Below, one piece after another: positions 128 through 29,589 of a stretch of DNA of 39,724 bases (the stretch's first letter is position 1; each line of letters starts with the position of its first letter). Origin of the DNA: a virus; the IMG/VR virus record IMGVR_UViG_3300020202_000051; one strand, written 5' to 3'. A program made the translations under genes and the position numbers. The notes under the pieces are model-generated. The model ran no database searches, was not told the DNA's origin, and saw only the letters and a program-made list of their open reading frames with translations.

Positions 128-667
128 CACGTCGCTTTCGACACTCTGCGAGTTGACTGCAGTGACCTTGTACCGGTAATCGCCGGTCAAGACACCTACG
201 GCCTGAGATGCTACGGAATGAGTCGTCGTCGGAGGATACACCCCGTGACGGGTCCAGTTCGTCCCGTTCCACTTGTAGGGGATCACGTATCCATTGCCGC
301 AAAAGAGATGGTTCTCAAACTGAGAAGCCCCGACCCGAACGCCTGCTGTAAAGACCGACTGCGCTGAGGCGATCGTCGTAAAGCTCGTTCCCCCCAACGC
401 CCAGGCCGAGCCTCCCGCAAAGGCGATCATGGTCTCAGTCGAGTCGTTGGCGCGCCTCACGTAAAGCCCATCGATCACAAATGACCCAATGGCAGCGGTA
501 TTGTGCTTGGCAAACCCGTCGCGAGTTGCGACAGATCCGTTGGAAAAAACGACATTCAGGCAGTCAGGCGACTCATTGTCCTCGATGATCGAGCGCTCAA
601 ACTTATTGTTGAGCCCCCCATCGAAGAGAATCGGCTTTCTGCCAGGATAGATCTTCTGCCCGCTCAT
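1..667 (-). CDS. 5' part (222 codons) of a 632-aa tail/nozzle-like virion protein that wraps the contig junction (continues 39597..38366)
   Basis: Hand translation from ATG 667 (MSGQKIYPGRKPILFDGGLNNKFERSIIEDNESPD...) has no stop down to base 1. It is in frame with ORF 38366..39679 through the overlap. ATGA overlap with gene 664..1320. Missing from the ORF track because it is edge-truncated. Function is inferred from size and position only. Confidence 0.8.
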   Translation of the reverse strand, partial: MSGQKIYPGRKPILFDGGLNNKFERSIIEDNESPDCLNVVFSNGSVATRDGFAKHNTAAIGSFVIDGLYVRRANDSTETMIAFAGGSAWALGGTSFTTIASAQSVFTAGVRVGASQFENHLFCGNGYVIPYKWNGTNWTRHGVYPPTTTHSVASQAVGVLTGDYRYKVTAVNSQSVESDVGPVSTTFTAAGATLRVSSIPTFAASFGISERRLYRTEAGGST

Positions 668-1320
668 ACCATCCCTAGGATCGTGATCCCGAGTCGCTCC
701 TCATCCTGAACCGCAGCGAAAGCATCACCCCTCTTCTTTCTCGCCGCATACCGCTTGGCGGCCATGAGCCCTTTCATGGGGTTATCCGCCCATTGCTTCA
801 TGTAGTACTCAGCTGCTTTAAAATTCTCGTCCTTGGCTGCCATCTCAGCATTCACGTAATCGAGAAGATCCATGTGGAACTGGGAGGGGACCTCAAGAGT
901 GGAGGTGATCGTAATGGCCTGGGGCTCGTTGTAGCTGTAAATCTTCAGCGTCTGAGCCGCATCGGGGATGGGTCTCAAGATCAGCGTCTCATCCCAGATC
1001 GCGTAATACTGAGGCGACCCCTGAGCCGTCGTCGACGCATTGAAACCCGTCAGCGCATCATCTTCCCTGAAGTTGATCGGCTGGAGCTTCGATCCATTGT
1101 AGGTGACGCGCTTGATCTGAATCGTGTTCGTCGGATACGCATACTCCTGCGTTCCTGCGACCGTGGTCGTCGTATACGCCTGCTCGATGACGAGCGCCTC
1201 GCGCGCCATCTGGAGGCAGGCGTTGTAGAGGTAGTCCAAGATCTCTTGCTGCGACCAGAAGGTATCGCCTACGGCGTTATAACGCCTGCGCGCATGAGTC
1301 TCGAGTTCAGATGGCGTCAT
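664..1320 (-). CDS. Virion-module protein, possible head-tail adaptor / tail tubular A-like (position only)
   Basis: 218-aa ORF with ATG at 1320. Its stop overlaps the start of the 632-aa tail gene (ATGA at 664-667). No motif recognised. Confidence 0.6.
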   Translation of the reverse strand: MTPSELETHARRRYNAVGDTFWSQQEILDYLYNACLQMAREALVIEQAYTTTTVAGTQEYAYPTNTIQIKRVTYNGSKLQPINFREDDALTGFNASTTAQGSPQYYAIWDETLILRPIPDAAQTLKIYSYNEPQAITITSTLEVPSQFHMDLLDYVNAEMAAKDENFKAAEYYMKQWADNPMKGLMAAKRYAARKKRGDAFAAVQDEERLGITILGMV

Positions 1321-1325
1321 TGAGC

Positions 1326-1724
1326 CTAGCTCCAGCTGGTAGAGGCAGCCGTCGCAGAGGTCCAGCTGGTGCTCGCAGCCGTCCCTGAGGAGTAGGAAGC
1401 TTCATCTCGGTTCTCAGCCTCAGTCGTGTCCGACGTGAATACGTATCTCCAGCCGGATCCGTCCTGAAGCGTCTCTGAGGTCGTCTCTGACGTAGGCGTC
1501 AGATCGTTTGAAACTAGCTTTTCTACCCTGCGCGAATAGTCGTCAGAAAGGGATTGTGAGTTTGAAATCAGCTTCACTACTGCGACCTGAAGATCTTCCG
1601 TGCCCTCGCCCCATTTGGACGTTCCCCAGGTCATTGTGTAAGGAGCGTTATTTCCCCATTTCGTCGATGGCGATCCCCCGAAGCAGTTGACCACATTCGA
1701 GATCGTCTGCGAGAAATCAGCCAC
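1326..1724 (-). CDS. Small virion-module protein with Ser/Thr-rich repeated C-terminus
   Basis: GTG start at 1724 behind AAGGGAGGGG. The C-terminus is ...SYSSGTAASTSWTSATAASTSWS, encoded by an imperfect 30-bp tandem duplication at 1331..1390. Confidence 0.65.
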   Translation of the reverse strand: MADFSQTISNVVNCFGGSPSTKWGNNAPYTMTWGTSKWGEGTEDLQVAVVKLISNSQSLSDDYSRRVEKLVSNDLTPTSETTSETLQDGSGWRYVFTSDTTEAENRDEASYSSGTAASTSWTSATAASTSWS

Positions 1725-2971: not shown

Positions 2972-3241
2972 TCACCGTCCTACTGCGACGACGTAAAAGA
3001 CGTCCCCTGCGGCAGCTGAGTTGATGTTCAGGATTCCAGGCCTCGAGGTCGCGCCCGAGCCGATGTTCTTCTTGAATGTGGGTGAGGCAGTCGCCATCGA
3101 GATCTGGCCAATCGAGAAGTAATCAATCACCGATAGGCCGGTATCGATGTTCCCGCTCGCCGAATCGATCGAGCACGAAACGCAGTGCTGGCGCTTATTC
3201 CCCCAAACCGACTTACTGATGATATCCAACGTAAAGGCCAT
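2972..3241 (-). CDS. Hypothetical virion-module protein (89 aa)
   Basis: ATG at 3241 preceded by CTAGGAGGAGCGAGAAC. Confidence 0.6.
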   Translation of the reverse strand: MAFTLDIISKSVWGNKRQHCVSCSIDSASGNIDTGLSVIDYFSIGQISMATASPTFKKNIGSGATSRPGILNINSAAAGDVFYVVAVGR

Positions 3242-3254
3242 GTTCTCGCTCCTC

Positions 3255-4271
3255 CTAGAACAGAATTTTCATGTCTTTCTTCTCGGGCTCTAAGCACTGC
3301 GCCCGCATTTCATGGTACATCGTGTACATCCACAAGAATCGTTTGAGCGGCATCTGCTGAATCTGCATGATGTTGCCCTCGGGGTAGGCTCCCATCGTGC
3401 CGCCCTCTGAACAGTTGATGTAGAGCCCGGCCACGGTCGACGCCAGCCAGTCAAACCAGATCTTGAAGTTGAAGTAGCTTGCCCAGGTGAGGACCTTGTT
3501 GCCAAAGACGTCGACCGCCCGCATCGCCTCACCCAGGTTCCCGTCGTACTTCGACTTCCACGGGTGAAACTGCTTGGAGTAGGAGAAGCAGAAATCCGAT
3601 CCCACCCAGGCGATGGGGTTGGCTCCTAGAATCGCTTTGGCAATGTAGGTCGCAGCTCCCAGGACATTTCCGCCGGTCGATACGTAAGTATGGAACTGCT
3701 CGATCTTCTCAATCTCAGAGAGAAGCCCCTCATCGGGGATCGGGCAGTTGAAGAAAAGAACCTTGCCCTGCCAGAGCTTGAGGAGATCCGGGTGCGTCCC
3801 GATGAAACAGAGGAGCGTCCGGTCTTTCGTCAGCTCCTTGTACTCGTCTAACGTCTTCTTCCCGCCTTCAGCGATCTCTGGAATCGTGACGGCACCGGCG
3901 TCCAGGCTAACGTAGTAGTCGACCTTGACCCCGTGATCTTCCATGTAATGGAAATTGTGCAGGCAGGAGAGGATGGGGATCCCTTTCGTGTCCTTGAGGT
4001 CTTCGATCGAATTCTTAAGCGAAGGCCCTGAGCCCGCCACGATCACGGGCTGCTTATCGAACTTCCCGTAGAGCTGCCCAATCCCCTGGGCTTTGAAGGA
4101 GCCGAACCTGGCCTTATTGGCTGCGATCTGTTCCAACCACTGCTGCCGCCACGTCGAGACCGTCGTCTTATCGTTGCTGCAGGCCTGGGCGTACATCTCC
4201 TGCTGATTCCTGGGCGGTCCAGGAATCATATTCATGTACTCGAAATCCATCTCTACCGTTTTTAGAACCAT
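3255..4271 (-). CDS. DUF115/MptE-like (Maf-type) putative nonulosonic-acid glycosyltransferase
   Basis: 338 aa. Motifs KQPVIVAGSGPSLKNSIEDLK, HGVKVDYYVSLDAG and STGGNVLGAATYIAKAILGANPIAWVGSDFCF match my memory of the PF01973/Maf core. Located inside the capsid gene block. Confidence 0.7.
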   Translation of the reverse strand: MVLKTVEMDFEYMNMIPGPPRNQQEMYAQACSNDKTTVSTWRQQWLEQIAANKARFGSFKAQGIGQLYGKFDKQPVIVAGSGPSLKNSIEDLKDTKGIPILSCLHNFHYMEDHGVKVDYYVSLDAGAVTIPEIAEGGKKTLDEYKELTKDRTLLCFIGTHPDLLKLWQGKVLFFNCPIPDEGLLSEIEKIEQFHTYVSTGGNVLGAATYIAKAILGANPIAWVGSDFCFSYSKQFHPWKSKYDGNLGEAMRAVDVFGNKVLTWASYFNFKIWFDWLASTVAGLYINCSEGGTMGAYPEGNIMQIQQMPLKRFLWMYTMYHEMRAQCLEPEKKDMKILF

Positions 4272-4382: not shown

Positions 4383-4871
4383 TTAGACCCCGGTCTTGAT
4401 GAAAGCGTAGGCCGTGCCGCCAGCGCCGGTATTCGCCCCAAGGACGTATCCGACAACCGTTGCAGTCCCCATCGTGGTAGTGCCAGAGGCCTCGATGAAC
4501 TTGCCGTCCACTCCCAAGGCAATCATCTTGTAATCAGCGGTCGTGGCCGACACCATGACAACCGACGCAAAGCCCCTCACCATGACCCAGCCGTAATCGG
4601 CCGTCGCCATGGTCGAGTGCTTCACCACGCCGACACACGGACTGAAGGTATCGGTCAACGAGGTCGCAGCGACCGAGTAACCGCTCGCACCGGTGATGAA
4701 CTTGACACCATTGCCTTTGCTCGCCTGTCCGCCCCCTGAATTGTAGCAGTAGACGTACTCCTCGCCCTGATACCAGAGCCTCGTTCCCAGATCGACCGAC
4801 GGGGTCGCCGTGACCTGAGAGACCGATTCAAACTGAATCGGGCCTGCACTATGCCATTGCATGGATCCCAT
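4383..4871 (-). CDS. Putative head decoration/cement protein (position-based)
   Basis: 162-aa Gly/Thr/Ala-rich ORF immediately downstream of the major capsid gene. ATG at 4871 behind GGTGAGGTGA. Confidence 0.55.
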   Translation of the reverse strand: MGSMQWHSAGPIQFESVSQVTATPSVDLGTRLWYQGEEYVYCYNSGGGQASKGNGVKFITGASGYSVAATSLTDTFSPCVGVVKHSTMATADYGWVMVRGFASVVMVSATTADYKMIALGVDGKFIEASGTTTMGTATVVGYVLGANTGAGGTAYAFIKTGV

Positions 4872-4889: not shown

Positions 4890-5810
4890 TTAGGAAGTTG
4901 TGGCCGAGAGCCGCCCATGAAGCCTGTTATTGGAGCTACCGAAAGCCCCCATCCACAGGATCTTGGCGGTCTTGACGTCCTGATTCACCGGCTTCTGGAA
5001 CGGCTCAAACTTCATGTCACAATCCTTGTGAACGAAAAGGTGGAGATAGTTCTCGTTCAGGAAGAACATATTTGAGGCCGGGCAGTAGCTATCCGGAATA
5101 ACCGGCGCGCCGTTGAACATCAGGTTCTCAAAGCCGCCCTTGGCGGTCTCAGAGTCCTGAAACCGCTGCTGAGGCTGCAAAAGCGCGTAGTACGAGTTGT
5201 ACAGCGTCCGGGTCGTTGCGATCACAGTCGGCTTATCGTTATTGACAGTAGCCGCAGTGAACCGGGTCTGCATGGCAGCGATCGAAAGAACGGTTGTCGT
5301 GCTATCGACCCCGCCCTGCCACCAGCTGTAGGAGCTTTGAGAGATGCCGCCTACGGTCTGGTCGGTGGCCACGATGTCCCGGAGGCCCACGATCGACTTC
5401 GTGTCGCTCCCGTCCGAGTAGATCCCGGTTCCAAGCTTATCGAGCATGGTCTTCTCGGCGATCTTGACCTTGTTTTTCACCAAGCTCAGGACCTGAGAGT
5501 CGCCCGAGTTCTTTCGCTCGTCAGCGCCAGTGATCGAGATATTGGCGTAAAGCTGCTTCCAAGTGTACTCGGCAGCGGTCATGACGTCGTTGTCGGTCGT
5601 GAGCAGCGTGTCGGCGCCCGAATACCAACCGGAGCTCGTCACAGTCGCGTAGTTGAGCGGCACGACGATTCTCTCGCCGCCGTCCAGCTTCTCATACGAC
5701 TTCTTCTTGAGCCGCATCAGGAGCGCATTGGAGTCAAAGATATTGTCGTAAAGCTTCGGAATGAACTTCTTCTGAGTGATCGCACTCAGCTGGTCATACG
5801 TCAGTGGCAT
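4890..5810 (-). CDS. Major capsid protein (HK97-fold type inferred)
   Basis: 306 aa in portal-scaffold-capsid order. N-terminal MPLTYDQLSAITQKKFIPKLYDNIFDSNALLMRLKK and C-terminal FNGAPVIPDSYCP...FLNENYLHLF resemble phage coat proteins, from memory. Confidence 0.75.
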   Translation of the reverse strand: MPLTYDQLSAITQKKFIPKLYDNIFDSNALLMRLKKKSYEKLDGGERIVVPLNYATVTSSGWYSGADTLLTTDNDVMTAAEYTWKQLYANISITGADERKNSGDSQVLSLVKNKVKIAEKTMLDKLGTGIYSDGSDTKSIVGLRDIVATDQTVGGISQSSYSWWQGGVDSTTTVLSIAAMQTRFTAATVNNDKPTVIATTRTLYNSYYALLQPQQRFQDSETAKGGFENLMFNGAPVIPDSYCPASNMFFLNENYLHLFVHKDCDMKFEPFQKPVNQDVKTAKILWMGAFGSSNNRLHGRLSATTS

Positions 5811-5822: not shown

Positions 5823-6704
5823 TTAAGCACCCAGGCCGAGCTCGGCTTTCACCTCGTCCAGAATGCTTTCGTAAGATTTGGATTTTAGGTTTTGGACCGG
5901 AGCCAAGCTCTGCTGAGGAGTTGGGGATTTCCCCAATAGTCCAAGCTTGGTTTTCTTTTGCAGGTCCTTGGCAGATTCTTCCTTCGCGCGCTCGGCATGA
6001 AGCTTCAGGATCTCGTCATGGTAAAAGTCGCGAAACGCGGTCTTGAAGTTCCTAATACCCTCTTTCTGGGCGTACTCTAAGACCTTGTATTCGAGTGACT
6101 TGCCATCGGCCCCAGGAGTGGTGAGATCTAGATTCGGAAACTCTTTCCGAATGGATTCCATCTGCTCCTGATACTGGGCGTCCTCGGTTTGGATCCGCCT
6201 CTGCTCGCGCTCCTGTTTCCACTCCTGGATGATCTGATCCTGCTCACCCAGTCGGGAGCGAAGGGCTTGAATCTCTTGTGCGATGGGATTGTTGGGATCA
6301 AACGCCTGTTCCCGCTGCTTCCAGGAGCTTTCCACATGCTCCCACCACTGCGGGTTCTCGCGAACGTAATCATCAATGGGCTTGTAGCGGCCCTCGATCT
6401 CTTTCAGTGCCCTCTGCTGGGCTTCAAACTCCTGCTGCCGGCGGTTCAGTTCCGCCATCTTCTGGGGATAGTCGTATCCCTGAGAGGCCCACTGCAGAAT
6501 CTTGTCGAGCGGGGCCTTGATGGGCTTTCCGTTCGCCGTAAACTCATACTCTTGGGGCGGCTGAGGAGGAGCCTGCGCCACACTGGGCTCAGCCCCAGCC
6601 GCTGTCATCGGGATCTCTGAGCTTCCCGGCGACTCAATCTGGTTTAAGAGGGCATCAACGTCGATATCGGGCGCGGATCCGCCTGAGGGAGTGCCTTCCA
6701 GCAT
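5823..6704 (-). CDS. Scaffolding protein
   Basis: 293-aa Gln/Glu/Lys-rich, coiled-coil-like ORF lying between the portal and capsid genes. Confidence 0.65.
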   Translation of the reverse strand: MLEGTPSGGSAPDIDVDALLNQIESPGSSEIPMTAAGAEPSVAQAPPQPPQEYEFTANGKPIKAPLDKILQWASQGYDYPQKMAELNRRQQEFEAQQRALKEIEGRYKPIDDYVRENPQWWEHVESSWKQREQAFDPNNPIAQEIQALRSRLGEQDQIIQEWKQEREQRRIQTEDAQYQEQMESIRKEFPNLDLTTPGADGKSLEYKVLEYAQKEGIRNFKTAFRDFYHDEILKLHAERAKEESAKDLQKKTKLGLLGKSPTPQQSLAPVQNLKSKSYESILDEVKAELGLGA

Positions 6705-7105: not shown

Positions 7106-8971
7106 TCAAGCGGGAACTGCTTGGGGCGCTCCTTTCGCTGCCATCTGGGCCTGGGCTTCAGCCTGCTTCTTCTGCATCACGCGCTCGAGGATGGGCTGCC
7201 AGTTGGGAATGTCTGCAGCCTTCAAGTACTCCTCCTCGTCAAAGACACCGTCCAGGTACATCTGTCGCGCACGGTTGAATTTGACGTCTTTCGCGAAGGG
7301 TAGGCTCGATCCGGTCGAGACTTTCACGTCGAAATCCCCTCTCAGGATGAATTCCCGGGTCTCCAGGGTCTCTGAGTAATGACCCGTCTCAGGATTTTGG
7401 ACGTAATCCCTGACGTAGGCCTTCCTGACAGTCGATCCATCGGGTTGCTGCTCATTCTGGACATGAAATTTGAAGTATTTGGATGCCGCCTGATCGTTTG
7501 TGACGCGGATGATCTGAGGGGTCGTGTAGAACTGAAAGACCCGGTTCTTGTAGAGCTGGCCGACTGACTGAAGGAACGCGTCTAGATTGCGGGATTTCTG
7601 CCGGATCCGGGTCTGAGCTGCCTCCTGGAGGCTGGCAATGGCGCTTGCTGCCGTAATCCCCTCGGGTCTGACGCCTCGAGAGACCTCCTGGGAGCCTGCA
7701 ATCTCGTCGACCGAGTTCCGCATCGTCTCAGCGAGCTGAAGGACGTAGGGCTGAAGCTGAACGCCCTCCTCGCGCCTGACCTCCGTGCCTGGAGTCTTCT
7801 CAACCACAAGCCCGGGTCGGTTGACCAGATTGTCAGTATCGATCCCGGCCGTGTCATCGCAGATCCAAATGGGGTTTCCCATCAAGGTCAGGACGTCGAG
7901 CGCAAAGGAGATGAGCTTGTTATAGATCTTCTGAGGCGATTGGAGCTGCTCGATCTCAGAGATTCCCCAGAACGTGCGCGGATCGATGTAGTTGACGAGT
8001 CTTGCATAGGGGAAAAGCCCGTCATCGAATGGATTCGGCCCATCGTGAAGGAGAACGCCTCCTGCGACACAGATTTTTCGCCCGTTCGGGTATTTCAGGC
8101 GCTTCTCGTACTCGACGACTTCCTGTCCATCGGGGCCGACTGAGCGCTTTTCCTCCTCCTCGACCTCTTCTGACTTAAGATAGACCGTCATCTTGAGCGC
8201 CTGATCGCGCACGGAGGCGTCATAGACGCTCGTTCCTTCGATGATGGTCTTGGTATCGACAGGCGAGCGGAACCGGACGACGTCAACGTCAGTCTTGGAT
8301 CCCTGGACGAGATCGATCAGATCCGCTTTGATGAAAGGTGCTTTCTCGGGATACTCTCTTTTCAGCTTCGAAACCTCAATCGGTTCCGCATAGATCATGA
8401 AGCTTGCGCGTTCGTTACAGTCCCTGGCATCCGGATCTGGAAAGAAGTAGAAGGGATCGAGCGAATCGAGCGTGATCTGCCCCTGGTTGTAGCGTGCCTT
8501 GCCGTCGTATCCGCACTCAGAGAGACCTGTCCCGTAGAAATGCCCGTCAAAGATGATCTCGGCTAACTTGAACGTCCAGTTCTGCCTCTGCCAGTCGGAT
8601 TCAGCGACCTCATCTAGGATTTTCGCAAACTCCATGTCGCTCGGGTCTTGAGCCAGATACTCAAAGCGCTGTCTCGCATCCGTCATGACAGGGACGACGC
8701 TTTGAATCGTCTGAAAGATCTTGTTGATGACCTCGCTATGCCGGTAGGAGGGGCGCTGCTCCTTCCACTGCTTGCCCCGGAACATCCGGTAGTAATCCAT
8801 CCAGTGCTGGTCGTACTGCTGGCGGTAGGATTTCGCCTTGGCAAAGAGCTTGTTGACGAGCGCGATTGCTTTTCGTTCGGCTTCAGACGGCGTATACTCT
8901 GCCGGCTCTGTGGAATTCATTCCCTGGCCTAAGGCCTGGTGCTCTCCAAGGACCGGTATGACCTCAGCCAT
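7106..8971 (-). CDS. Portal protein
   Basis: 621 aa, downstream of TerL and upstream of scaffold and capsid. The N-terminal region YRQQYDQHWMDYYRMFRGKQW is portal-like. Confidence 0.8.
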   Translation of the reverse strand: MAEVIPVLGEHQALGQGMNSTEPAEYTPSEAERKAIALVNKLFAKAKSYRQQYDQHWMDYYRMFRGKQWKEQRPSYRHSEVINKIFQTIQSVVPVMTDARQRFEYLAQDPSDMEFAKILDEVAESDWQRQNWTFKLAEIIFDGHFYGTGLSECGYDGKARYNQGQITLDSLDPFYFFPDPDARDCNERASFMIYAEPIEVSKLKREYPEKAPFIKADLIDLVQGSKTDVDVVRFRSPVDTKTIIEGTSVYDASVRDQALKMTVYLKSEEVEEEEKRSVGPDGQEVVEYEKRLKYPNGRKICVAGGVLLHDGPNPFDDGLFPYARLVNYIDPRTFWGISEIEQLQSPQKIYNKLISFALDVLTLMGNPIWICDDTAGIDTDNLVNRPGLVVEKTPGTEVRREEGVQLQPYVLQLAETMRNSVDEIAGSQEVSRGVRPEGITAASAIASLQEAAQTRIRQKSRNLDAFLQSVGQLYKNRVFQFYTTPQIIRVTNDQAASKYFKFHVQNEQQPDGSTVRKAYVRDYVQNPETGHYSETLETREFILRGDFDVKVSTGSSLPFAKDVKFNRARQMYLDGVFDEEEYLKAADIPNWQPILERVMQKKQAEAQAQMAAKGAPQAVPA

Positions 8972-9418: not shown

Positions 9419-10735
9419 TCAAGACCAGGATTCAGACTGGTTCCTCCGGCTCGGCCTCCGGAGCCGTTCCATCCGGGCGTGAATGTCCTCCTCTACGGGG
9501 GCTGCCTCAGGCGCCCGGGGAGCCTTCTTCGACTGCGCCCGGTAGGTCATGAGCGTTAAATACCTATCACAATCCATCGCATGGTCATTCTGGCCCACAG
9601 GGAGCTGATCTTTTGAGTCCTGATCAGGCTTTAGGTCCTTGGGTTCAGGGTAGTGGTACATCTGCCTTTCATCGGCTGAGTAAGGGCACGCCCCTTTGAA
9701 CTCCTTGTACCTGCGCGTTTTGATCAACTCATAATGAAGATCAATGCCGCGGCGAATGTCATTGTCAGCAGGAGCAGCCGGGAGCCCGGCCCGGCCCATC
9801 TCCTCAATCGACCCGGGCTGGCTAGGGTCGCACCAGAAGGTTTGAATGCCGTACACGCGGTGCTTTTGTCTTGCGATCTCGATCTGATCCATCAGGGTCA
9901 GCCCTGACTTGTAAAACTCTGAGACGCCGTAGTGCCTACCGTCAGGCGTCACAGCTCTCACCTTGAGCGCAAAGGGGTCTGTGAATCCCCAGTCGACCCC
10001 TGCGTAGTAGCGCGTCCCAGGGGGGAGCTCAAAGGGCTCGACCAGGTTCTGGTCATCGTCCCAGCAGTCATAGACGAGTCCGACCATCGAGCTCCACTCT
10101 CCACCAAAGAGCATCTTGAAGCGCCTGGGGTCCATCTGCGCTTCCATCTCGGCCCGGCGCTTGGGGTCATGAAGTGAGTGATAGGGATTCTCCCAGCTTG
10201 CCCCTTGAAGGAGCCTTACTTTGGGGAGCCCGCCTGCAAGCTTGGGTTTGATGTAGTCTTTGTAGAGCCAGTTCAAGGTGTAGGGGGACGTCGTCAGGAG
10301 ACCCTTGGCGCCGATCGCAGCCGCCCGCGCGAGTACGTTCTCCCAGAAGTAAAGTGACGCCAGGCCCGCCTCGTCTAGCCAGTAGGCTTTGACCCTCGGG
10401 ATACCGACGATCGAATTGGGATCCGTTCCGGTGCGCAGGAATACTAAGTCACCGGTATAGAGTTCATAGACCGCTTCGGCTTTCTTGTGATCCCCCGCTC
10501 CTTCCATGTAGTGCAGGAAGTAAGGAAGCATCGACTGCTGCATGATCTTGTAAGTCGGCGCCATGAGAAGGAATGCGGATTTTCCGTCAGATCCCTCATG
10601 GATCTGGCGTTTCATCCAGATAGCACCGCCTTGTGACTTTCCCCACTGGGTTCCAAAGGCTCCGATGGTTAACTCATTGTCGGAGAAAATCAGCTGCTCT
10701 TGTTTATCAGAATGGGGAACAAATGTTTCAGGCAT
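9419..10735 (-). CDS. terL: Terminase large subunit
   Basis: Walker A-like GTQWGKSQGG, Walker B-like YWLDEAG, and nuclease-type acidic motifs GVDWGFTDPFA and HAMDCDRYL. Start taken at ATG 10735 (MPETFVPHSDKQ). The track's GTG 10777 would add an AT-rich, non-coding-looking extension. Confidence 0.85.
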   Translation of the reverse strand: MPETFVPHSDKQEQLIFSDNELTIGAFGTQWGKSQGGAIWMKRQIHEGSDGKSAFLLMAPTYKIMQQSMLPYFLHYMEGAGDHKKAEAVYELYTGDLVFLRTGTDPNSIVGIPRVKAYWLDEAGLASLYFWENVLARAAAIGAKGLLTTSPYTLNWLYKDYIKPKLAGGLPKVRLLQGASWENPYHSLHDPKRRAEMEAQMDPRRFKMLFGGEWSSMVGLVYDCWDDDQNLVEPFELPPGTRYYAGVDWGFTDPFALKVRAVTPDGRHYGVSEFYKSGLTLMDQIEIARQKHRVYGIQTFWCDPSQPGSIEEMGRAGLPAAPADNDIRRGIDLHYELIKTRRYKEFKGACPYSADERQMYHYPEPKDLKPDQDSKDQLPVGQNDHAMDCDRYLTLMTYRAQSKKAPRAPEAAPVEEDIHARMERLRRPSRRNQSESWS

Positions 10736-10900
10736 CAGTTGTTGTTTATAAGTAGAAAAACAAAGGTTTTTTCGCACCCAATTCGCGATTCACCCTGACA
10801 ACTCATCAAAGTGGTAAAGCCGCGGTTCGACCGATAACCGTCCGATCGATTAACCTTAAATAGTGGCGTCACGCTGGAATTAGGCAAAAGGAGTTGTACG

Positions 10901-11026
10901 ATGACCGAATGGATCCTCGGAATTTTTGGGAGCATCATCAGCCGAATACTGTCCGAAATCGTACTGAATCGCCTCAAGGCGTTCTGGCGCTGGGTCACCC
11001 AATCACCATTCACCCCGTCACGCTAA
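10901..11026 (+). CDS. Candidate 41-aa amphipathic peptide, antisense to the flanking operon
   Basis: AAAGGAG sits 7 nt upstream of ATG 10901. Translation is [41 protein letters not shown]. Third-position GC is about 68% by hand count, against about 55% for the overlapping 92-aa minus-strand ORF. Confidence 0.35.
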
Positions 11027-15669: not shown

Positions 15670-16220
15670 CCCTTCTCCCCCTCTCCCCGCAGCTGGGCGA
15701 GGGCCTGGCGGGCGCCGTCCAAATATGCCTTATTGGACGCTACTTCTAAGTGCGTCGGGACACATCTTTCCTCGCAACAGTTACCTAGCGTCTCCGCAGC
15801 AGACATTAATCCCTCTTTGGCTTCCTCCAGCGCGTCCGTGGCCAGGGCGAGCTTCTTTTCACCCTCTGCCCACTTGATAGCCCACTCAGATTCTTGCAGC
15901 CACTTGTCCAGTCTAGATGGATGCTCAGCCGCAGCTTTCCATTCGGCTACCTCAGCGCGAAGTACCGCTATCTTTGCCTCTTGTTCCTCCACCAGCGCCA
16001 GCAGACGCGGGATGTCTGAACGCGCATGACTTATAAACTCCAAGAACTCAGTCGAAGGCTCTACACCTGAATCATCTTGAACCAAATGCTCGCCGGTCTC
16101 TGAGTTCCAGAGCTCCCAGTGGTCTAGGTCATCGCCGTGCGCATACGTCCACGGGGGAGGAGGCACCGCATCCACCCGCGCCTGCACCTGGGCGAGCCAG
16201 GCCTTCTCGTCTTCCCTCAT
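15666..16220 (-). CDS. Hypothetical early protein with a coiled coil (184 aa)
   Basis: ATGA overlap with the NeuB-like stop at 16217-16220. Confidence 0.65.
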   Translation of the reverse strand: MREDEKAWLAQVQARVDAVPPPPWTYAHGDDLDHWELWNSETGEHLVQDDSGVEPSTEFLEFISHARSDIPRLLALVEEQEAKIAVLRAEVAEWKAAAEHPSRLDKWLQESEWAIKWAEGEKKLALATDALEEAKEGLMSAAETLGNCCEERCVPTHLEVASNKAYLDGARQALAQLRGEGEKG

Positions 16221-17260
16221 CTCTCACCATCCCAATCCCAGCGGCCAATCGCATGGCCCGCCTGAATGTTCACCCTGACCCGGTGCCCCTCGATGCTCGG
16301 AGCCGCATGAGGCGGAAGCCAGTCGAGTGACGGCACGTGCGAGCGGTAGATGCCAAACGTCTCGCCTTCTTTCAGAACGTCGCCTTTCTTAAGATCGCGT
16401 AGGGCGATCAAGCGCCTGTGATGCAGGAGCCGCATCGAATTGTCGTCGGCGTTCTGTTCAGGCAGATTCCCACGGATCGCTTGCACCATTTCCTTAAATT
16501 CAGACGGGATCAGACTATGCGGCCGGTCAGGCGTCATCACGTCGGGAATTACCGTAAAGTGCTTCTCAATCACACAAGCACCGGTTCCCCATGTCATGGC
16601 CAGGATCTCGGTTGAATGATCCGAAAGCCCTGCGGGCACCCGGAACTCATGAGCGAAACGCGAAAGTTTCCACAACTCTGTCCGCCGTGCTGGATAGGCT
16701 CCTACGCAGTACATGAGAACGACAGGCGTCTCGCCCAGGCGCCTAAGCGCAAGCCGGATCTCCGTCTCGCTATGCCCTGCGGTTGAAAGGAGCACGGGCT
16801 TCCCGTAGCCTTTGAGCTTATCCAAGATTCGGATATGCGCCATCTCGGAGGATGCGACCTTATGGATCCTGACGTAAGGGTTAACCACGTCGTAAAGCTC
16901 GGGCGAGAAGGCCGAGCACAGGAATTCAATCGCATGCTCATCGCAGTGGGCTGAAAGGAGCGGGATCCACTCAGGCGGCATCTCACCCGGCAAGCGCTTT
17001 CTTAAGCTCCCGCGCGCATAAAGTTCCTCAAGGGGGATATCCGAGTCAGGCGCTGTCGCATCCGTGAGACTGAGAACGCCATAAAGCGCCTGCTCATTGA
17101 AGAGCTGAAACTTGACCGCATCTGCTCCCGCCTCTTTCGCTGCCTCAATCGATCTCAGGCAATCGTGAATGTCACGCCAGTTGCTGCCGACCTCGGCAAT
17201 TATGAAGGGCTTACATCCGTCGCCGATCTTAAGATCAGGACCGACTTCAATCGTGCTCAA
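16217..17260 (-). CDS. NeuB/PseI/SpsE-family nonulosonic (sialic-like) acid synthase homologue
   Basis: N-terminal KPFIIAEVGSNWRDIHDCLRSIEAAKEAGADAVKFQLF (NeuB TIM-barrel signature). C-terminal SAF-like LIALRDLKKGDVLKEGETFGIYRS. TTG start at 17260 behind GAGGAGGAGGAG, with a TTGA overlap. Confidence 0.75.
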   Translation of the reverse strand: MSTIEVGPDLKIGDGCKPFIIAEVGSNWRDIHDCLRSIEAAKEAGADAVKFQLFNEQALYGVLSLTDATAPDSDIPLEELYARGSLRKRLPGEMPPEWIPLLSAHCDEHAIEFLCSAFSPELYDVVNPYVRIHKVASSEMAHIRILDKLKGYGKPVLLSTAGHSETEIRLALRRLGETPVVLMYCVGAYPARRTELWKLSRFAHEFRVPAGLSDHSTEILAMTWGTGACVIEKHFTVIPDVMTPDRPHSLIPSEFKEMVQAIRGNLPEQNADDNSMRLLHHRRLIALRDLKKGDVLKEGETFGIYRSHVPSLDWLPPHAAPSIEGHRVRVNIQAGHAIGRWDWDGER

Positions 17261-21892: not shown

Positions 21893-23017
21893 TCACCGCT
21901 TGGCCCCCCCGGTGATCGACACCACGACGTCCTGCAGGCCAGCTCCAAAGCCGATCCGTTTGCCCTTCTCAACCAAGTGCGAAATGTCTTTCTTCGTGTA
22001 CCGCTCAGTCACAAGCACCGTCGAATGACCCAGCATGTCCTTGATCTCAGATTTGGAGTACCCGGCGCGCTCGGCATTCGTCGCGAACGTCCGCCTGAGG
22101 TCATGGATCGTTACCCGGGTGACCTTGGCTTCGGTGATCGCCCGCCTGTGGACATCCTTGAACGTGTCGTAAGGGATGAATCCCCCTTCAGGCTTTGACG
22201 CGATGTAGTCCTGAGGCCGGGTCCATTTCGTCTCACTCCGGAATGCATCAATCGCATCCCTGAGCCTTGGGAAGAGGGGCACCAGGGTCTCCCCTCCTTC
22301 GCCCTTCCCCTTTTGGCGTTCCACGACCTCACCCAAGGCTCGGTCCTCAAGGCGCCTGACCTGGACGACGGACGCCTCCCAGTCGATATCCTGGAACTGA
22401 AGCGCATTGGCCGAGCAGATCCGGGCGCCTGTCCAAAGCAGGAGCTGGCCCAGCATCCAGTAGTGAATCCCCTCTGCCCGGAGGGCCTCAAGATACCTCC
22501 CCTGCTCCTCCCAGCTCAGAACCTGCTTGGACTTGATCGGCTCGGGCTTGAGCGGAATTCGGCTGATCGGATTGACCAAGACCTTGCCTTCCATGAAGGC
22601 GTCCTGAAAGAGCTTGTGCATGAGCGCCCGGTACCGATTCCGGGTCGCGACCGTTTTCTTCATCTCGTATTGAAGCTCATCCAATGCCTCGAGAACCTCA
22701 GCAGTCGAGATGCTCTGCATGGGCCTCACCCCAAACCTGGGGAGCCAGAAGTTCTTGAGCCTCGAATCGTCATTCTTGACCGTCCCAAGCGGCATCTCGG
22801 CATAGCGCTTCCTGATCCACCGCTTGGCAAAGTCAATGAGCAGGATCTCATCCAGGGGAGCGGCAAGTCCGGCCTTCACCCTCTGGCGGTCAATCTGAAC
22901 CTTGCCTTCAAACTCAATTGCGTCTTGTTTCCGGGTAAATGAGCGGGTTTTGACCTTCCCCATGTCCCGCCATTGTACCATCCAGGGGGCTTTCCGCCCT
23001 TCCCTGTACTGAGGCAT
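21893..23017 (-). CDS. int: Tyrosine integrase
   Basis: TGARICS (Arg), HDLRRTFAT (His-x-x-Arg) and LGHSTVLVTERYTK (His...Tyr). Adjacent to the attP-like tRNA fragment. Confidence 0.9.
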   Translation of the reverse strand: MPQYREGRKAPWMVQWRDMGKVKTRSFTRKQDAIEFEGKVQIDRQRVKAGLAAPLDEILLIDFAKRWIRKRYAEMPLGTVKNDDSRLKNFWLPRFGVRPMQSISTAEVLEALDELQYEMKKTVATRNRYRALMHKLFQDAFMEGKVLVNPISRIPLKPEPIKSKQVLSWEEQGRYLEALRAEGIHYWMLGQLLLWTGARICSANALQFQDIDWEASVVQVRRLEDRALGEVVERQKGKGEGGETLVPLFPRLRDAIDAFRSETKWTRPQDYIASKPEGGFIPYDTFKDVHRRAITEAKVTRVTIHDLRRTFATNAERAGYSKSEIKDMLGHSTVLVTERYTKKDISHLVEKGKRIGFGAGLQDVVVSITGGAKR

Positions 23018-25866: not shown

Positions 25867-25917
25867 GATCAGGTTATAGATCCAGTTTGCAAAAACTGCA
25901 ACTAAAAATTGCAAAAA
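25867..25917. promoter_or_regulatory. Divergent switch region with a palindromic operator
   Basis: TTGCA-AAAAC-TGCAA at 25887-25901, and a second TTGCA at 25909. The minus-strand promoter reads TTGCAG (25901..25896), 17 nt, TATAAC (25878..25873). Confidence 0.6.
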
Positions 25918-27371: not shown

Positions 27372-27570
27372 CGTCATCGTTCACGACGGGCTTCCGCTTC
27401 ACGGGCTCGGGCTTGAAGGTAAACCGCCCCGATCTCACCAGCTGCTGAGGCGCAGGCTTATCATAGGGGATCGGGCTCGGCCGCTGGCCGAAGAGGAGGA
27501 GCCCCAAGGCCAGGAGCGCGATCGAAAGGAGCACTCCGATCACGATCCCGAGCCAGAGCACGCGCTTCAC
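27337..27570 (-). CDS. Single-pass membrane protein (77 aa), last gene of the sugar cassette
   Basis: N-terminal VLWLGIVIGVLLSIALLALGLLLF. ATGA-type overlap with the GNAT gene. Confidence 0.55.
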   Translation of the reverse strand: MKRVLWLGIVIGVLLSIALLALGLLLFGQRPSPIPYDKPAPQQLVRSGRFTFKPEPVKRKPVVNDDVKAYLAEKEQR

Positions 27571-28181
27571 CCTACGGCTCTAGAGTAAGCAGGCTGCCCC
27601 GCCTGATTGAACCGCTGCCAGTCTTCCATCCGAAGCGGGATCTTGTTCGGGTAAGCAGCGTGCGAGAACCACTCATCTCTGAGCAGGCTGTAAAGCTGCG
27701 CATCGAGATACTCGCCTTCGCGGTAGTAAAATGCGCGCCTTGAGCCCTCGAGCTTAAACCCCAGGTCCTGAAAGATCTTCTGGGCGGCATTGCCCTCAAA
27801 CGATTCACCCCAGATGCAGTTGAGCCCGAGCGTATAGAAGCCGTGGCTAACGAGCGTCTGAAGGGCTGCCCTCCCGTGCCCATGCTTACGCTCATTGGGT
27901 GCAATGTAGAGGGAGAATTCAGCCCTGTGGTTCCAGGGGTCGATCGACGTCAGTCCACAGACGCCGACAGGCTTTCCTTCGGCCTTGATGATGTACATCT
28001 TGATCGACGGATCCTGCGCCTGGCGCTCATACCATTTCTCCTGGGCGTAATCCGAAATGAGATCGTTCTGCCTGCAGGTGCGCCAGGTCGCGTAATCGTT
28101 CCGCCATTCCTTGATCAGATGCATGAAATGGCGATCGAGCGGCCCGAGACTGACGTTCTTCCCGTAGCCGTAGGCGATCAC
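27567..28181 (-). CDS. GNAT N-acetyltransferase (PseH/RimL-like)
   Basis: LIKEWRNDYATWR..., GVCGLTSIDPWNHRAEFSLYIAPNERKHGHGRAALQ and NAAQKIFQDLGFKLEG fit the GNAT fold and PseH-like N-terminus. Confidence 0.7.
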   Translation of the reverse strand: MIAYGYGKNVSLGPLDRHFMHLIKEWRNDYATWRTCRQNDLISDYAQEKWYERQAQDPSIKMYIIKAEGKPVGVCGLTSIDPWNHRAEFSLYIAPNERKHGHGRAALQTLVSHGFYTLGLNCIWGESFEGNAAQKIFQDLGFKLEGSRRAFYYREGEYLDAQLYSLLRDEWFSHAAYPNKIPLRMEDWQRFNQAGQPAYSRAVG

Positions 28182-28372
28182 GCGGCTTTCTCCCAGAGCT
28201 TCTGGATGAGATCCACCAGGTGGAAGTTCTCGGAAACGCCGACGTTGTCCTTCAGAAATGCGCCGAAGGCTTCGCCGAACTTCCCCTGCTCATGCTTCAG
28301 TTCCATCTCCATCTTTCTCAGCTTCTCTCGCCATTCGACGAGTGCCTGGATCTTTGTATCAATCTCACTCAT
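28178..28372 (-). CDS. Hypothetical helical protein (64 aa)
   Basis: ORF coupled to both neighbours by 4-nt overlaps. Confidence 0.5.
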   Translation of the reverse strand: MSEIDTKIQALVEWREKLRKMEMELKHEQGKFGEAFGAFLKDNVGVSENFHLVDLIQKLWEKAA

Positions 28373-29589
28373 GCCTTTCCCTCCCTCACTTTGGCGGCAA
28401 ATGGACTCTGAGGGGCTTTGCCCTCAAGTTGTACAGACCCTGTCCTGATCCGGGTCAAAATGTCTGAGCAGGTATTCAGAACCTGATCCATGACGGATAT
28501 ATGGTGGAAGTTGAAGAACCAGGAGGGGCCAAAGAGAATCCCTGCCCGGCAAGCCTCCTGCCAGAACTTGGCCTTCACCTCGGGATCGCCTTTGAAGTAG
28601 CCCCGCGTCGGATACCCTTCGATCTGGATCATCCCGGGCCAGATGGAATTGAAGGCCTTTAGGAATTGCCCGCCCTTCTCCCAGAGGTGCTCAAGTCGAT
28701 ATTTCGTCTGAAGGAGCTGCATCGTTTTTGTGGCAGCGGCCAGAGACAGCGTCTCGCCCGCAAAGGTCGAAGAGACGAAATACTCCTGTCCGCTCATGAG
28801 ATCGCGCTTGCCTGCGACTGCTGACAAGGGCATCCCATTGGCGATCGCCTTCCCCAGGCAGATGAGATCCGGCTGAATGCCGTAATGCTGAGCTACGGTG
28901 AAACCTGGATACCTGAAGCCCGTAATGATCTCATCGAAGATGAGAACGACTCCATTACGCGTGCAGAATTCCCGCAGCTGCCTGAGCCAGGCAATTCGGT
29001 CGTCGCTTGTATCGAGCATGACGGGCTCGATGATGACGGCAGCTGTATCGGGCTCGATTTCGGCCGCCTCAAGCTTCCGGATCCACTGATGATGCATCAC
29101 TCCCAATGCGGGAGGGGTCAGCGAGACGAACTCGTCAGACCACCCGTGATATCCTTCGGTGTAGACGCGGTTCCGCTTGGTATAGGCCCTGGCGATCCTG
29201 AGTGCTGCCTGGCAGGCTTCGGAGCCTGTCTTTAGGAACTTCACTTGCTCGACCCAGGGGACGAGTTCTTTGACCTTCTCAGCGGTGAAAAGCTCAGTAT
29301 AGGAGCTGAGCGAAAGCGTCGCTCCCTGGTGCGCCCGGTGGATGATGGCTTCAGTGACTTCCGGGTGCCCGTAGCCCAGGATGTTTGAGCCCAGGCCGCA
29401 GATAAAGTCTAAGAACCTGTTTCCTTCAACATCCCATACATAAGCGCCATGACCGGTAGCTAGATGAGTAGGGTAGATTCCCTCGATCAAACAGGAGGGC
29501 CTCTTACTGTTTGTCAGCGAACCCTGAGCAATACACTCCATAGCTCGCCGCTGGTAGTCCCATTTTGGTGGTTTCCACTTATGCGGCAT
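28369..29589 (-). CDS. Class-III PLP aminotransferase (glutamate-1-semialdehyde aminomutase-like)
   Basis: HGAYVWDVEGNRFLDFICGLGSNILGYGHPEV and the PLP-lysine context DLICLGKAIANGMPLSAV. Start is ATG 29589 (GGAAGGG SD) or 29604. Confidence 0.75.
   Translation of the reverse strand: MPHKWKPPKWDYQRRAMECIAQGSLTNSKRPSCLIEGIYPTHLATGHGAYVWDVEGNRFLDFICGLGSNILGYGHPEVTEAIIHRAHQGATLSLSSYTELFTAEKVKELVPWVEQVKFLKTGSEACQAALRIARAYTKRNRVYTEGYHGWSDEFVSLTPPALGVMHHQWIRKLEAAEIEPDTAAVIIEPVMLDTSDDRIAWLRQLREFCTRNGVVLIFDEIITGFRYPGFTVAQHYGIQPDLICLGKAIANGMPLSAVAGKRDLMSGQEYFVSSTFAGETLSLAAATKTMQLLQTKYRLEHLWEKGGQFLKAFNSIWPGMIQIEGYPTRGYFKGDPEVKAKFWQEACRAGILFGPSWFFNFHHISVMDQVLNTCSDILTRIRTGSVQLEGKAPQSPFAAKVREGKA

Follow-up and report, generated by a model that had tools for sequence, protein, structure and literature searches.

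The window (the whole stretch of DNA analysed, 39,724 nucleotides; IMG/VR record IMGVR_UViG_3300020202_000051) is the complete 39.6-kb genome of a temperate podovirus with an integrase gene (21893..23017) and an HTH repressor-like gene; no tRNA genes were found in it. Positions 3255..4271 of its minus strand form one ATG-to-stop open reading frame of 338 amino acids, whereas the plus-strand reading of the same positions contains many stops. The earlier note had thus been right about the existence of a 338-aa reading frame, while its account of the strand has to be corrected. The gene is annotated here as encoding a minimal, Maf-like putative nonulosonic acid transferase (PF01973). All three peptides that had been cited for it are present in the translation (KQPVIVAGSGPSLKNSIEDLK, HGVKVDYYVSLDAG and STGGNVLGAATYIAKAILGANPIAWVGSDFCF). 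Because homologues of the protein fall into 1474 clusters, and the 120 best clusters are 56–70% identical to it and about 337 amino acids long, the reading frame is not a chance one.

When the minus strand is followed, the gene lies within the capsid block, as had been claimed. The genes of this block, all on the minus strand, are those for the portal (7106..8971; P22_portal/SU10_portal match), a 293-aa protein in scaffold position (5823..6704; assigned by position), the major capsid protein, MCP (4890..5810; phrog_9953 major head protein, E = 9e-64), g162, a 162-aa protein with a capsid decoration/cement fold (4383..4871), the Maf-like protein and g89 (2972..3241), a small virion-module gene that is preceded by a GAGGAG site and starts 13 nt past the Maf-like stop codon. 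Five small genes lie between the Maf-like gene and an SU10-type adaptor (664..1320; family match). In IMG/VR the phage has 161 relatives, which form an uncultured clade with the Maf-like gene as a core gene; across 83 loci portal, scaffold, MCP, g162, Maf-like gene, g89 and the genes up to the adaptor keep a constant order, and the succession of MCP, g162 and Maf-like gene is also kept in divergent lineages. A promoter and terminator scan around the Maf-like gene gave no signal above chance. There is no cultured relative, the closest portal of a cultured phage being just 24.7% identical, and a tblastn search of 50,697 GenBank phage records with the Maf-like protein yielded no match. A scan of the genomes of 185,579 species for the host returned only three binned MAG contigs, of inconsistent taxonomy.

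In bacteria, Mafs attach nonulosonic acids, supplied in CMP-activated form, to serine and threonine residues of flagellin. The PF01973 (MptE-like) domain that had been expected in the phage protein was matched in Pfam (E = 5.1e-21; residues 62–230; 75.6 bits versus a cutoff of 34.6); other Pfam domains, including the Maf N-terminal domain PF20157, were not found, and PHROGs and NCBIfam gave no family match. The AlphaFold (AF2) model (pLDDT 91.9) has as its best Foldseek match the Maf from Magnetospirillum, 5MU5 (E = 1.4e-11; 310 aligned columns; query-normalised TM 0.52), whose central domain has a modified, sialyltransferase-like GT-A fold; archaeal MptE and a run of CMP-sialic acid (GT29) sialyltransferases come next. 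Searched against the PDB, the single sequence finds 5MU5 only with E = 0.49, which is too weak by itself, and the family profile finds it with E = 3.4e-4, about 400-fold ahead of MptE (0.13).

The Pfam family bears the name of MptE, and the protein might therefore be a 6-hydroxymethyl-7,8-dihydropterin pyrophosphokinase (HPPK) or another small-molecule kinase, the more so since the MptE of M. jannaschii (8sd5) is matched by the model with E = 2.6e-5 (TM 0.51–0.55, target-normalised). We consider this extremely improbable: by predicted structure 5MU5 is ahead roughly 10^6-fold in E-value, in addition to the profile gap just given; PF20157, the N-terminal domain of Mafs, occurs in the closest cellular relatives (see below); the motifs held in common with Mafs reach the TEGG region (residues 288–291); folate or pterin genes are absent from the genome; and the constant partners of the gene are a NeuB-type synthase and a cytidylyltransferase. 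In a weak alignment with the 241-aa HPPK, phage residues 196–251 lie opposite HPPK residues 164–218, so that the HPPK chain appears to stop before the TEGG region. The earlier note had held that a lack of PF01973 or Maf similarity, or a clear affinity to MptE, would speak against its assignment, and neither was observed. Assignment of the protein to the Maf-type enzyme family is well supported, as is the sugar pathway described below.

In an exhaustive profile search the phage family is followed by many proteins of 580–635 amino acids (E = 1e-19 to 1e-22), in which approximately residues 190–470 are matched. Of six relatives that were scanned (five of about 620 aa, one of 981 aa), four have both PF20157 (Maf_flag10_N) and PF01973; judged by sequence, the closest cellular kin are canonical Mafs of about 620 amino acids. 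The phage protein corresponds to the central region only of these Mafs and is without their C-terminal helical domain, for which a tie to flagellin or chaperone binding has been proposed. Motifs common to both (GPSL, LD124AG, GGxV, GxD226, H236, D254..GN.V.T and TE289GG) extend over some 280 residues.

Mutagenesis has shown that MmMaf E324 and D415 and their equivalents in CbMaf and GkMaf are essential (bioRxiv 10.1101/2020.06.03.131540). The first of these acidic residues (MmMaf E324, CbMaf D272, GkMaf D285) is aligned to D124 of the LDAG motif, which is kept in all 189 distinct members of the phage family. The second is MmMaf D415, CbMaf D357 or GkMaf N379; the G-x-D of canonical Mafs is aligned to G224-S-D226, and position 226 is Asp in 183 and Asn in 6 of the 189 members, Asn being the residue found in GkMaf. 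Since the HMMER alignment to 5MU5 reached only the N-terminal half, with 5MU5 numbered no further than residue 332, D226 is the probable counterpart of D415 by motif alignment and spacing rather than by structural superposition. H236 is present in 188 and E289 in 186 of the 189 sequences, against a mean column identity of about 59% across the family. The serine of the GGSV motif that is essential in two bacterial enzymes, CbMaf (S334) and GkMaf (S356; bioRxiv 10.1101/2020.06.03.131540), is replaced by N202 (GGNV), the position being occupied by Asn in 185, Cys in three and Thr in one of the 189 members, so that the phage enzyme may differ from them in its chemistry or in its donor.

This replacement, together with the location of the gene among structural genes, could mean that the protein is catalytically dead and now acts in head assembly or as a structural component. 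Such a role is highly improbable in our view, because conservation of D124, D226, H236, E289, GPSL and GGNV in the 189 members amounts to a maintained active-site signature, in which the replacing Asn is itself near-invariant, and because for a non-enzyme the lasting linkage to a sugar nucleotide pathway would have no point.

The genes of that pathway, all on the minus strand, are found at two locations in the genome, and what had been said of the NeuB, GNAT, class-III aminotransferase and CTP_transf_3 genes proved right at the family level. For the narrower types PseH, PseI and PseF, no match reaches its equivalog cutoff. A NeuB-family nonulosonic acid synthase of the PseI/SpsE-like kind is encoded at 16217..17260 (PF03102, E = 5e-46); in NCBIfam it scores 141 bits with PseI and 140 bits with NeuB, both far below the equivalog cutoffs, and its best PDB matches are SpsE (1vli, 5e-27) and PseI (8h2c, 2e-22). 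NeuB is found in 21 of 23 informative loci, directly upstream of the terminase.

The second location harbors a cassette. Its putative CMP-sugar synthetase, a CTP_transf_3 cytidylyltransferase (30056..30781; PF02348, E = 2e-18), matches 6oew in the PDB (E = 2e-12), and Pfam and NCBIfam scans gave no PseF equivalog match for it. The GNAT N-acetyltransferase (27567..28181; Acetyltransf_3, E = 5e-13) is weakly PseH-like: PseH (TIGR03585) is its best NCBIfam match with 75.9 bits, below the cutoff of 93.1, and among PDB sequences SpeG (8e-13) is better than PseH (4ri1, 8e-5). Between them lies a class-III (GSA-aminomutase-like) aminotransferase (28369..29604; PF00202, Aminotran_3, E = 2e-49) with PDB matches to GSAM (about 1e-42) and also to the sugar C-6' aminotransferases GenB and NeoN; it is the only aminotransferase in the window, where a DegT-type PseC was not found, and putatively holds the place at which a PseC-type enzyme would act. 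The cassette also contains g154 (29579..30043), a reading frame with no significant family match whose homologues occur within the cassette of only three other loci.

In a survey of related phage contigs the Maf-like gene was found to co-occur throughout the clade with NeuB and the CTP_transf_3-containing cassette, as the earlier note had led one to expect; the combination of CTP_transf_3, class-III aminotransferase and GNAT is present in 24 of 27 informative loci. In a few relatives, L012/L092, L094 and L161, the Maf-like gene is kept and NeuB or the cassette is lost. A dehydratase resembling PseB, the inverting 4,6-dehydratase of the canonical pathway, is encoded in 30 of 33 cassettes of the relatives, i.e., in about 90% (240 bits to TIGR03589 versus a cutoff of 408; Polysacc_synt_2, E = 7e-71), and is absent from the window by tblastn; a candidate for the UDP-sugar hydrolase PseG was found neither in the window nor in the L101 cassette. 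Of the proposal that the phage makes or completes a CMP-sugar, only the second half can therefore hold: without the dehydratase the phage at best completes the pathway and cannot run it from UDP-GlcNAc.

Phage glycosyltransferases that add diverse glycans to DNA are known (10.1101/2023.12.21.572611; PMC13326640), which, with several reading frames of the window still without annotation, raises the question whether the nonulosonic sugar could be put on phage DNA as a base hypermodification against restriction rather than on protein. This we regard as scarcely to be expected, since genes for base hydroxymethylation, TET/5mYOX or DNA methyltransferase were not found in the scanned reading frames, since the Maf-like gene belongs to the head module rather than to the replication module, and since no action of Maf or sialyltransferase families on DNA is known.

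Among the virion proteins, g162 is the candidate acceptor with the best placement, a choice suggested by gene position only. Its AF2 model (pLDDT 84) matches in Foldseek the base of phi29 gp8.5 (6qyy, E = 1e-4) and also capsid accessory proteins of Pam3, T1, TW1, HFTV1 and BB1; its gene adjoins that of MCP, ahead of the Maf-like gene, in 78 of 83 loci, and residues T60, S63, G64, Y65 and S66 are invariant. MCP (18% Ser + Thr) is, again by position only, the alternative candidate. Of the small genes downstream, g89 is kept at about +1.0 kb in 75 of 83 loci and has a family median of 20% Ser + Thr, and g132 (1326..1724, minus strand), a Ser/Thr-rich small head-tail-module protein, is a candidate acceptor by composition (32.6% Ser + Thr; family median 25%; conserved Ser/Thr-rich C-terminal tail), its outlier status being weak evidence because virion proteins are generally rich in serine and threonine. 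A collagen-like protein with just 6% Ser + Thr is an unlikely acceptor.

Mirror-tree analysis of 24 genomes (23 loci and the window) detected no specific co-evolution of the Maf-like protein with g162 (Spearman 0.085, partial correlation −0.03), nor did any other virion protein stand out as its partner. This result leaves some weight on a host component as the target, which might be a protein (flagellin, pilin or one of the S-layer) or a lipid-linked precursor of a glycan. Its modification would serve to mask receptors, to exclude superinfection or to bring about lysogenic conversion. Every characterised Maf acts on flagellin; the phage is temperate, as its integrase and HTH repressor-like genes indicate, so that host-directed roles have room; and prophage enzymes that tailor nonulosonic acids of the host are known, e.g., epaA/epaB of Acinetobacter baumannii (PMC12053666). 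A host target is nevertheless unlikely, if worth keeping in mind. In every relative the Maf-like gene is a fixed core gene of the head block rather than a variable moron near the integrase/immunity region, it is tightly coupled to its structural neighbours, with neither a promoter nor a terminator signal rising above chance around it, its product is without the N- and C-terminal Maf domains, of which the latter is the one with a proposed tie to flagellin or chaperone binding, and lysogenic conversion fits late-operon expression poorly.

From the enzyme family, the fold, the conservation of catalytic-type residues, the synteny and the co-occurrence with the pathway, we lean, with some reserve, towards the proposal that the Maf-like enzyme O-glycosylates virion surface proteins with a CMP-derived sugar of the pseudaminic/legionaminic class, g162 and MCP being the likeliest targets. 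The gene would encode a shortened Maf that is soluble and catalytically competent and is expressed along with the head genes as part of the late operon. As its donor we infer a 5,7-diamino nonulosonic acid, CMP-activated and pseudaminic or legionaminic in type, with which the clade would largely supply itself by means of the PseB-like dehydratase, the class-III aminotransferase, the PseH-like GNAT, the NeuB-type synthase and the CTP_transf_3 cytidylyltransferase; the phage of the window, having no dehydratase, would have to draw an intermediate from its host. O-glycosylation of exposed serine and threonine residues would take place in the cytoplasm, either ahead of head assembly or in its course, most likely on g162 and/or MCP and possibly on the Ser/Thr-rich small head-tail proteins, and the particle would end up coated with an acidic sugar. 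The wider proposal, that a large, globally distributed, uncultured clade of podoviruses (about 35–41 kb) makes its own CMP-pseudaminic-like sugar and that its GGNV-type minimal Maf O-glycosylates g162 and/or MCP, is put forward tentatively, as something we would hold at a little short of an even chance.

Beyond the mycobacteriophages, knowledge of how phage particles are modified post-translationally is scant, and a published precedent for phage-encoded nonulosonic acid glycosylation of the virion was not found. If the proposal is correct, this would be the first virus-encoded system for protein glycosylation with nonulosonic acids and the first non-flagellin class of acceptors of the Maf family; many environmental phages would spend about 15% of a 40-kb genome on a sialic acid-like capsid sugar, and the presence of NeuB-like genes in viromes would be explained. 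The virion surface would have to be seen anew with respect to charge, stickiness to mucus and particles, resistance to proteases and grazing, and how immune lectins and antibodies recognise it; since the sugar cassette differs among members of the clade, the chemistry of the capsid surface would differ too. A compact, soluble 338-aa nonulosonic acid protein transferase would become available to glyco-engineering, and because nonulosonic acids are immunologically active, the finding would be of relevance to phage therapy and display.

With the bacterial Mafs (5MU5, CbMaf of C. botulinum, GkMaf of G. kaustophilus and those from Campylobacter, Helicobacter and Aeromonas) the phage protein shares the PF01973 core, the best structural match, by alignment both acidic residues essential in mutagenesis, and, as partners in the genome, genes for a cytidylyltransferase and a synthase of the NeuB type. 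It differs in having 338 rather than 600–660 amino acids, about half, in lacking both Maf_flag10_N and the C-terminal helical domain, and in having Asn in place of the essential Ser of GGSV. The Mafs are bacterial and have flagellin as acceptor, whereas the phage gene lies inside a head-gene block; scans of the reading frames of the complete 39.6-kb genome revealed no flagellar genes, and with no flagellin gene the acceptor must be a different one. Archaeal MptE (8SD5) has the Pfam family and the Rossmann-like core in common with the phage protein, but is a single domain of about 230 amino acids apparently without the TEGG region, belongs to an unrelated pathway context and is a much weaker match than Maf.

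Of the canonical pathway PseB-PseC-PseH-PseG-PseI-PseF the phage clade has PseB-like, PseH-like and PseI-like (NeuB) enzymes, CTP_transf_3 in the position of PseF, and an aminotransferase, with all matches below the equivalog cutoffs. The canonical aminotransferase is of the DegT/PseC type and that of the phages a class-III, GSA-aminomutase-like enzyme; no counterpart of PseG was found in the window or the L101 cassette, and the phage set has in addition a short GFO-like protein (208 aa) and is split over two genome locations, the window phage lacking the PseB-like enzyme as well.

In 2023 Freeman and colleagues reportedly found that glycosyltransferases encoded by mycobacteriophages modify capsid and tail-tube proteins. 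These are likewise tailed phages encoding enzymes for the glycosylation of their own structural proteins. Their enzymes are conventional glycosyltransferases with ordinary nucleotide sugars as donors, and we know of no nonulosonic acid, Maf-type enzyme or comparable phage sugar pathway in that system. They have been termed "putative glycosyltransferases" (PMC11256854).

Prophages of A. baumannii carry epaA/epaB, which convert Pse to 8-epi-Pse (PMC12053666), and O-acetyltransferases (PMC6586298). These enzymes, too, are phage-borne and act on sugars of the pseudaminic/legionaminic type, but they edit the capsule of the host (lysogenic conversion) and come without a protein transferase, a link to capsid genes or a set of synthase and cytidylyltransferase. 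[quoted passage not shown] There the sugar and the glycosylation machinery come from the host rather than from a virus-encoded pathway (PMC6137143), and the glycan is N-linked on an enveloped archaeal virus, whereas that proposed here would be O-linked on the capsid of a tailed phage.

The gene at 3255..4271 is an open reading frame of 338 amino acids that runs from ATG to stop on the minus strand. The earlier note had placed it at this interval, and the three peptide motifs quoted there are all found in the protein; the strand, however, has to be given as minus, the plus-strand translation of 3255..4271 being full of stops. As predicted in that note, Pfam assigns the protein (residues 62-230) to PF01973 (MptE-like, earlier named DUF115/Maf_flag10), with E = 5.1e-21 and 75.6 bits (gathering cutoff 34.6 bits).

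PF01973 includes both the Maf glycosyltransferases and the archaeal pterin pyrophosphokinases (MptE/HPPK), and on four counts the phage protein sides with Maf, so that the outcome named in the earlier note as speaking against its reading, a clear affinity to MptE, did not arise. The AlphaFold2 model, based on 30 members of the family (pLDDT 91.9, pTM 0.90), has as its best structural match in the PDB the Magnetospirillum Maf glycosyltransferase 5MU5 (E = 1.4e-11, 310 columns), followed by the archaeal MptE/HPPK 8SD5 (E = 2.6e-5) and then by a long series of CMP-sialic-acid-dependent GT29 sialyltransferases. The family profile searched against the PDB gave E = 3.4e-4 for 5MU5 and 0.13 for MptE. 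When 1.84 billion representative proteins were searched exhaustively with the profile, 4133 matched, the closest after the phage family being many proteins of 580-635 amino acids (E = 1e-19 to 1e-22) that match at about residues 190-470 with profile positions 33-320; four of six cellular relatives scanned for domains (five of ~620 amino acids, one of 981) contain PF20157, the Maf N-terminal domain, plus PF01973 and are therefore canonical Mafs. Finally, MAFFT alignment of the phage proteins with canonical Mafs revealed the common motifs GPSL..N, LD124AG, GG-x-V, G-x-D226, H236, D254..GN.V.T262 and TE289GG, which cover almost the entire phage protein, the last three falling outside the Pfam domain. 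In a single weak alignment to a 241-amino-acid HPPK, phage residues 196-251 correspond to HPPK 164-218, so that the HPPK chain appears to stop short of the TEGG region. That the gene encodes an MptE-type kinase, the reading for which the second rank of 8SD5 could be cited, is thus very improbable.

Mutagenesis has shown that E324 and D415 are essential in the Magnetospirillum Maf, as are the equivalents D272, S334 and D357 in the C. botulinum Maf and D285, S356 and N379 in the G. kaustophilus Maf (bioRxiv 10.1101/2020.06.03.131540). E324 is directly aligned to phage D124, and the Asp in the G-x-D motif of canonical Mafs, which lies 23 residues past the conserved Ser (the published spacing), is aligned to phage D226. 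Among 189 distinct family members D124, G82, L85, G200 and G201 are conserved in all, H236 in 188, and P83, S84 and E289 in 186; position 226 is Asp in 183 and Asn, also found in the G. kaustophilus Maf, in 6. At a mean column identity of only about 59% in a 30-member sample, such conservation marks an active site that has been maintained, and we give very little credence to a non-catalytic role of the protein in assembly. The phage protein differs from Mafs in three features: 185/189 members have Asn (GGNV) in place of the essential Ser (GGSV), the Maf domains at both the N- and the C-terminus are missing, the second of these having been compared to flagellin and flagellin chaperones (PMC11339370), and there is no flagellin context. 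A further family of short proteins (~300 amino acids; alignment A4) also has Asn at this position. Because of the Asn and the missing flanking domains we describe the protein as a "minimal Maf" subtype with a predicted Maf-like action.

The first 127 nt of the window are identical to nt 39598-39724. The window is thus the complete genome of a phage, circular (or terminally redundant), with 39,597 unique bp (57.3% GC), and its gene complement can be treated as complete. The minus strand carries nearly all its credible genes, among them the head block, which reads terminase large subunit (9419..10777, phrog_2), P22/SU10 portal (7106..8971), a 96-aa ORF, a 293-aa gene in scaffold position, major capsid protein (MCP; 4890..5810, phrog_9953, E = 9e-64), g162 (4383..4871; small ORFs are named by their length in amino acids), the Maf-like gene, five small genes and an SU10-type adaptor (664..1320). 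The structural gene following the Maf-like gene starts 13 nt past its stop and is preceded by a GAGGAG site; a scan of the window found no promoter or terminator signals above chance around the Maf-like gene.

Gene order and spacing hardly vary among 83 loci, with NeuB at -7.5 kb from the Maf-like start, terminase at -6.3, portal at -4.6, scaffold at -2.3, MCP at -1.45, g162 at -0.5, g89 at +1.0 and the adaptor at +2 to +3 kb. Divergent lineages (Maf-like protein at 23-113 bits) still keep the order MCP, g162, Maf-like gene, and in locus L156 the g162 ORF overlaps the Maf ORF. The Maf-like gene is a constant member of the late head operon rather than a moron. This position, together with the missing flagellin-associated domains, speaks against the main rival explanation, namely that the enzyme acts on a host component rather than on the virion, which is favoured by the precedents in Acinetobacter prophages (PMC12053666) and by the temperate lifestyle deduced from an integrase (21893..23017, minus strand) and a divergently oriented HTH_3 repressor-like gene (25909-26427, plus strand); we consider it unlikely.

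The Maf-like family comprises 1474 clusters in a database of 5.8 billion proteins, of which the best 120 have a length of about 337 amino acids and lie on contigs reaching at most near 35-41 kb. There are 161 relatives in IMG/VR, and none of 50,697 GenBank phage records matches the gene; the closest portal of a cultured phage shows 24.7% identity. The gene belongs to a clade of uncultured phages. Only 3 MAG contigs from the genomes of 185,579 species contain it, yet the phage bears an integrase; integrated copies appear to be rare or the hosts unsampled. Other uncharacterised MptE-like proteins are found in uncultured phages and a mimivirid, and the phenomenon may therefore reach beyond the clade. 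Such viral proteins (L190:9977-11835; P0184, P0198; BFVD A0A6J7XC21, A0A6J5PVH5, A0A5B8IGA8) include two tandem copies in a 65.6-kb viral contig, short proteins with a fused SAM methyltransferase, proteins of about 700 amino acids from uncultured Caudovirales, and, in the mimivirid ChoanoV1, DUF115 proteins.

In four relatives (L014, L034, L042, L075) NeuB is flanked directly by a DUF5681 protein, in the putative small-terminase position, on one side and by the large terminase on the other, and is therefore embedded in their packaging module. In the window the NeuB region (16217-17649) is split from the terminase by a ~4.5-kb insertion. The insertion holds a collagen-triple-helix-repeat protein (11010-12578, minus strand; five Pfam Collagen stretches, E = 2e-42) with only 6% Ser+Thr; two divergent lineages have very large collagen-like ORFs (L186:11279-17386, L188:11379-14597) directly downstream of the Maf-like gene.

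The other sugar genes form a clade-wide cassette placed after the fibre genes, which came to light in a second set of 69 loci anchored on the tail fibre's conserved N-terminal domain; in L101 a few ORFs, one of them M15 peptidase-like, separate the two. The fibre itself (32873-34237, minus strand) has a modular architecture of receptor-binding swap, with ~140 N-terminal residues conserved clade-wide and a variable C-terminus, in the window a C1q domain. A PseB-like SDR (TIGR03589 at 240 bits; Polysacc_synt_2, E = 7e-71) comes first in the cassette, then a GFO-like protein of 208 amino acids, CTP_transf_3, the class-III aminotransferase, one small ORF and the PseH-like GNAT. NeuB was found in 21/23 loci showing the region upstream of the terminase, and the core of cytidylyltransferase (CTP_transf_3), aminotransferase and GNAT in 24/27 loci that extend 8 kb or more downstream of the fibre; 30/33 cassettes have the PseB-like gene. 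A few relatives show cassette decay or rearrangement with the Maf-like gene retained: L092 has a truncated aminotransferase (11441-12391), in L139 (7532-8616) the GNAT adjoins a short NeuB-like gene, and L094 has in place of the cassette a DUF3799 PDDEXK protein and a spermidine-synthase-like methyltransferase (L094:13094-15412). The window also has two peptidoglycan-hydrolase-like genes: an Amidase_2 endolysin candidate (31072-31521, minus strand), which adjoins the cassette, and, separate from it, a 437-aa, probably virion-associated tail-module protein with an amidase-like domain (38366-39679, minus strand; phrog_5107).

We interpret the clade as encoding five of six steps in a route of the pseudaminic-acid type (PseB-PseC-PseH-PseG-PseI-PseF), with NeuB as the PseI-type synthase. 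The aminotransferase differs from that of the canonical route, and among the clade's sugar genes there is no recognisable candidate for PseG. The missing step could be replaced by g154 (window 29579-30043, minus strand), which is inside the cassette of only three other loci, or by the 208-aa protein of relatives (L101:14025-14651), which contains only a fragment of the GFO_IDH_MocA Rossmann domain; either could also do something else. Neither the PseB-like nor the GFO-like gene is present in the window, which therefore could only complete the pathway from a host intermediate. The four sugar enzymes named in the earlier note (NeuB, PseH-like GNAT, aminotransferase, cytidylyltransferase) hold at the family level, but every Pse-specific assignment scores below the equivalog cutoff; the predicted sugar would be of the pseudaminic-acid type.

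An AlphaFold model of g162 (pLDDT 84) matches gp8.5, the head fibre of phi29, in its base domain (E = 1e-4), and also chains in the capsid reconstructions of Pam3, T1, FCWL1, HFTV1 and Borrelia BB1 and the capsid-stabilising protein of TW1, all of which we take to be decoration or cement proteins; the match to lambda gpD/SHP is weak. This supports the earlier note's description of the gene as decoration-like. The loop T60/S63/G64/Y65/S66, where the model is less confident, is invariant in the g162 family. The small protein g132 (1326-1724, minus strand) contains 32.6% Ser+Thr (family median 25%), and its homologues in 55 loci have a conserved S/T-rich C-terminal tail, typically ending ...[ST]xW[ST]. 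A mirror-tree analysis of 24 genomes (23 loci and the window) did not single out g162 (Spearman 0.085, partial -0.03) or any other virion protein as a specifically co-evolving partner of the Maf-like protein. This result is neutral, not contradictory to virion glycosylation. There is no sequon that Mafs recognise, and they also tolerate engineered acceptors (PMC11339370).

We propose that the phage makes a CMP-activated 5,7-diamino nonulosonic acid, which this genome would finish, and that the cytoplasmic minimal Maf would transfer it during head assembly to Ser/Thr of virion surface proteins. The likeliest targets would be the adjacent g162 and/or the MCP, with Ser/Thr-rich small proteins such as g132 as possible further ones; we infer the acceptor from gene position only. 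Taken as a whole, this mechanism is the one towards which we lean, by a little; DNA as the acceptor of the sugar is most improbable: none of the scanned ORFs gave a base-hydroxymethylating, TET/5mYOX or DNA-methyltransferase match, the Maf-like gene lies in the head module and not among replication genes, and Mafs and sialyltransferases are not known to modify DNA. The earlier interpretation is supported in part: enzyme family and pathway are solid, and virion glycosylation, judged from gene position, is plausible.

The enzyme family and the sugar class are known; context and architecture are new, and presumably also the acceptor. In the full-text literature open without subscription, neither a phage-encoded Maf nor virus-encoded nonulosonic-acid protein glycosylation was found described. 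Among the nearest precedents are the mycobacteriophages, the virions of which are reportedly glycosylated by conventional glycosyltransferases (Freeman et al. 2023). Another is HRPV-1, whose spike carries a legionaminic-acid glycan, a nonulosonic acid made by the host (PMC6137143), and a third are the Acinetobacter prophages, whose enzymes edit the nonulosonic acids of the host capsule (PMC12053666).
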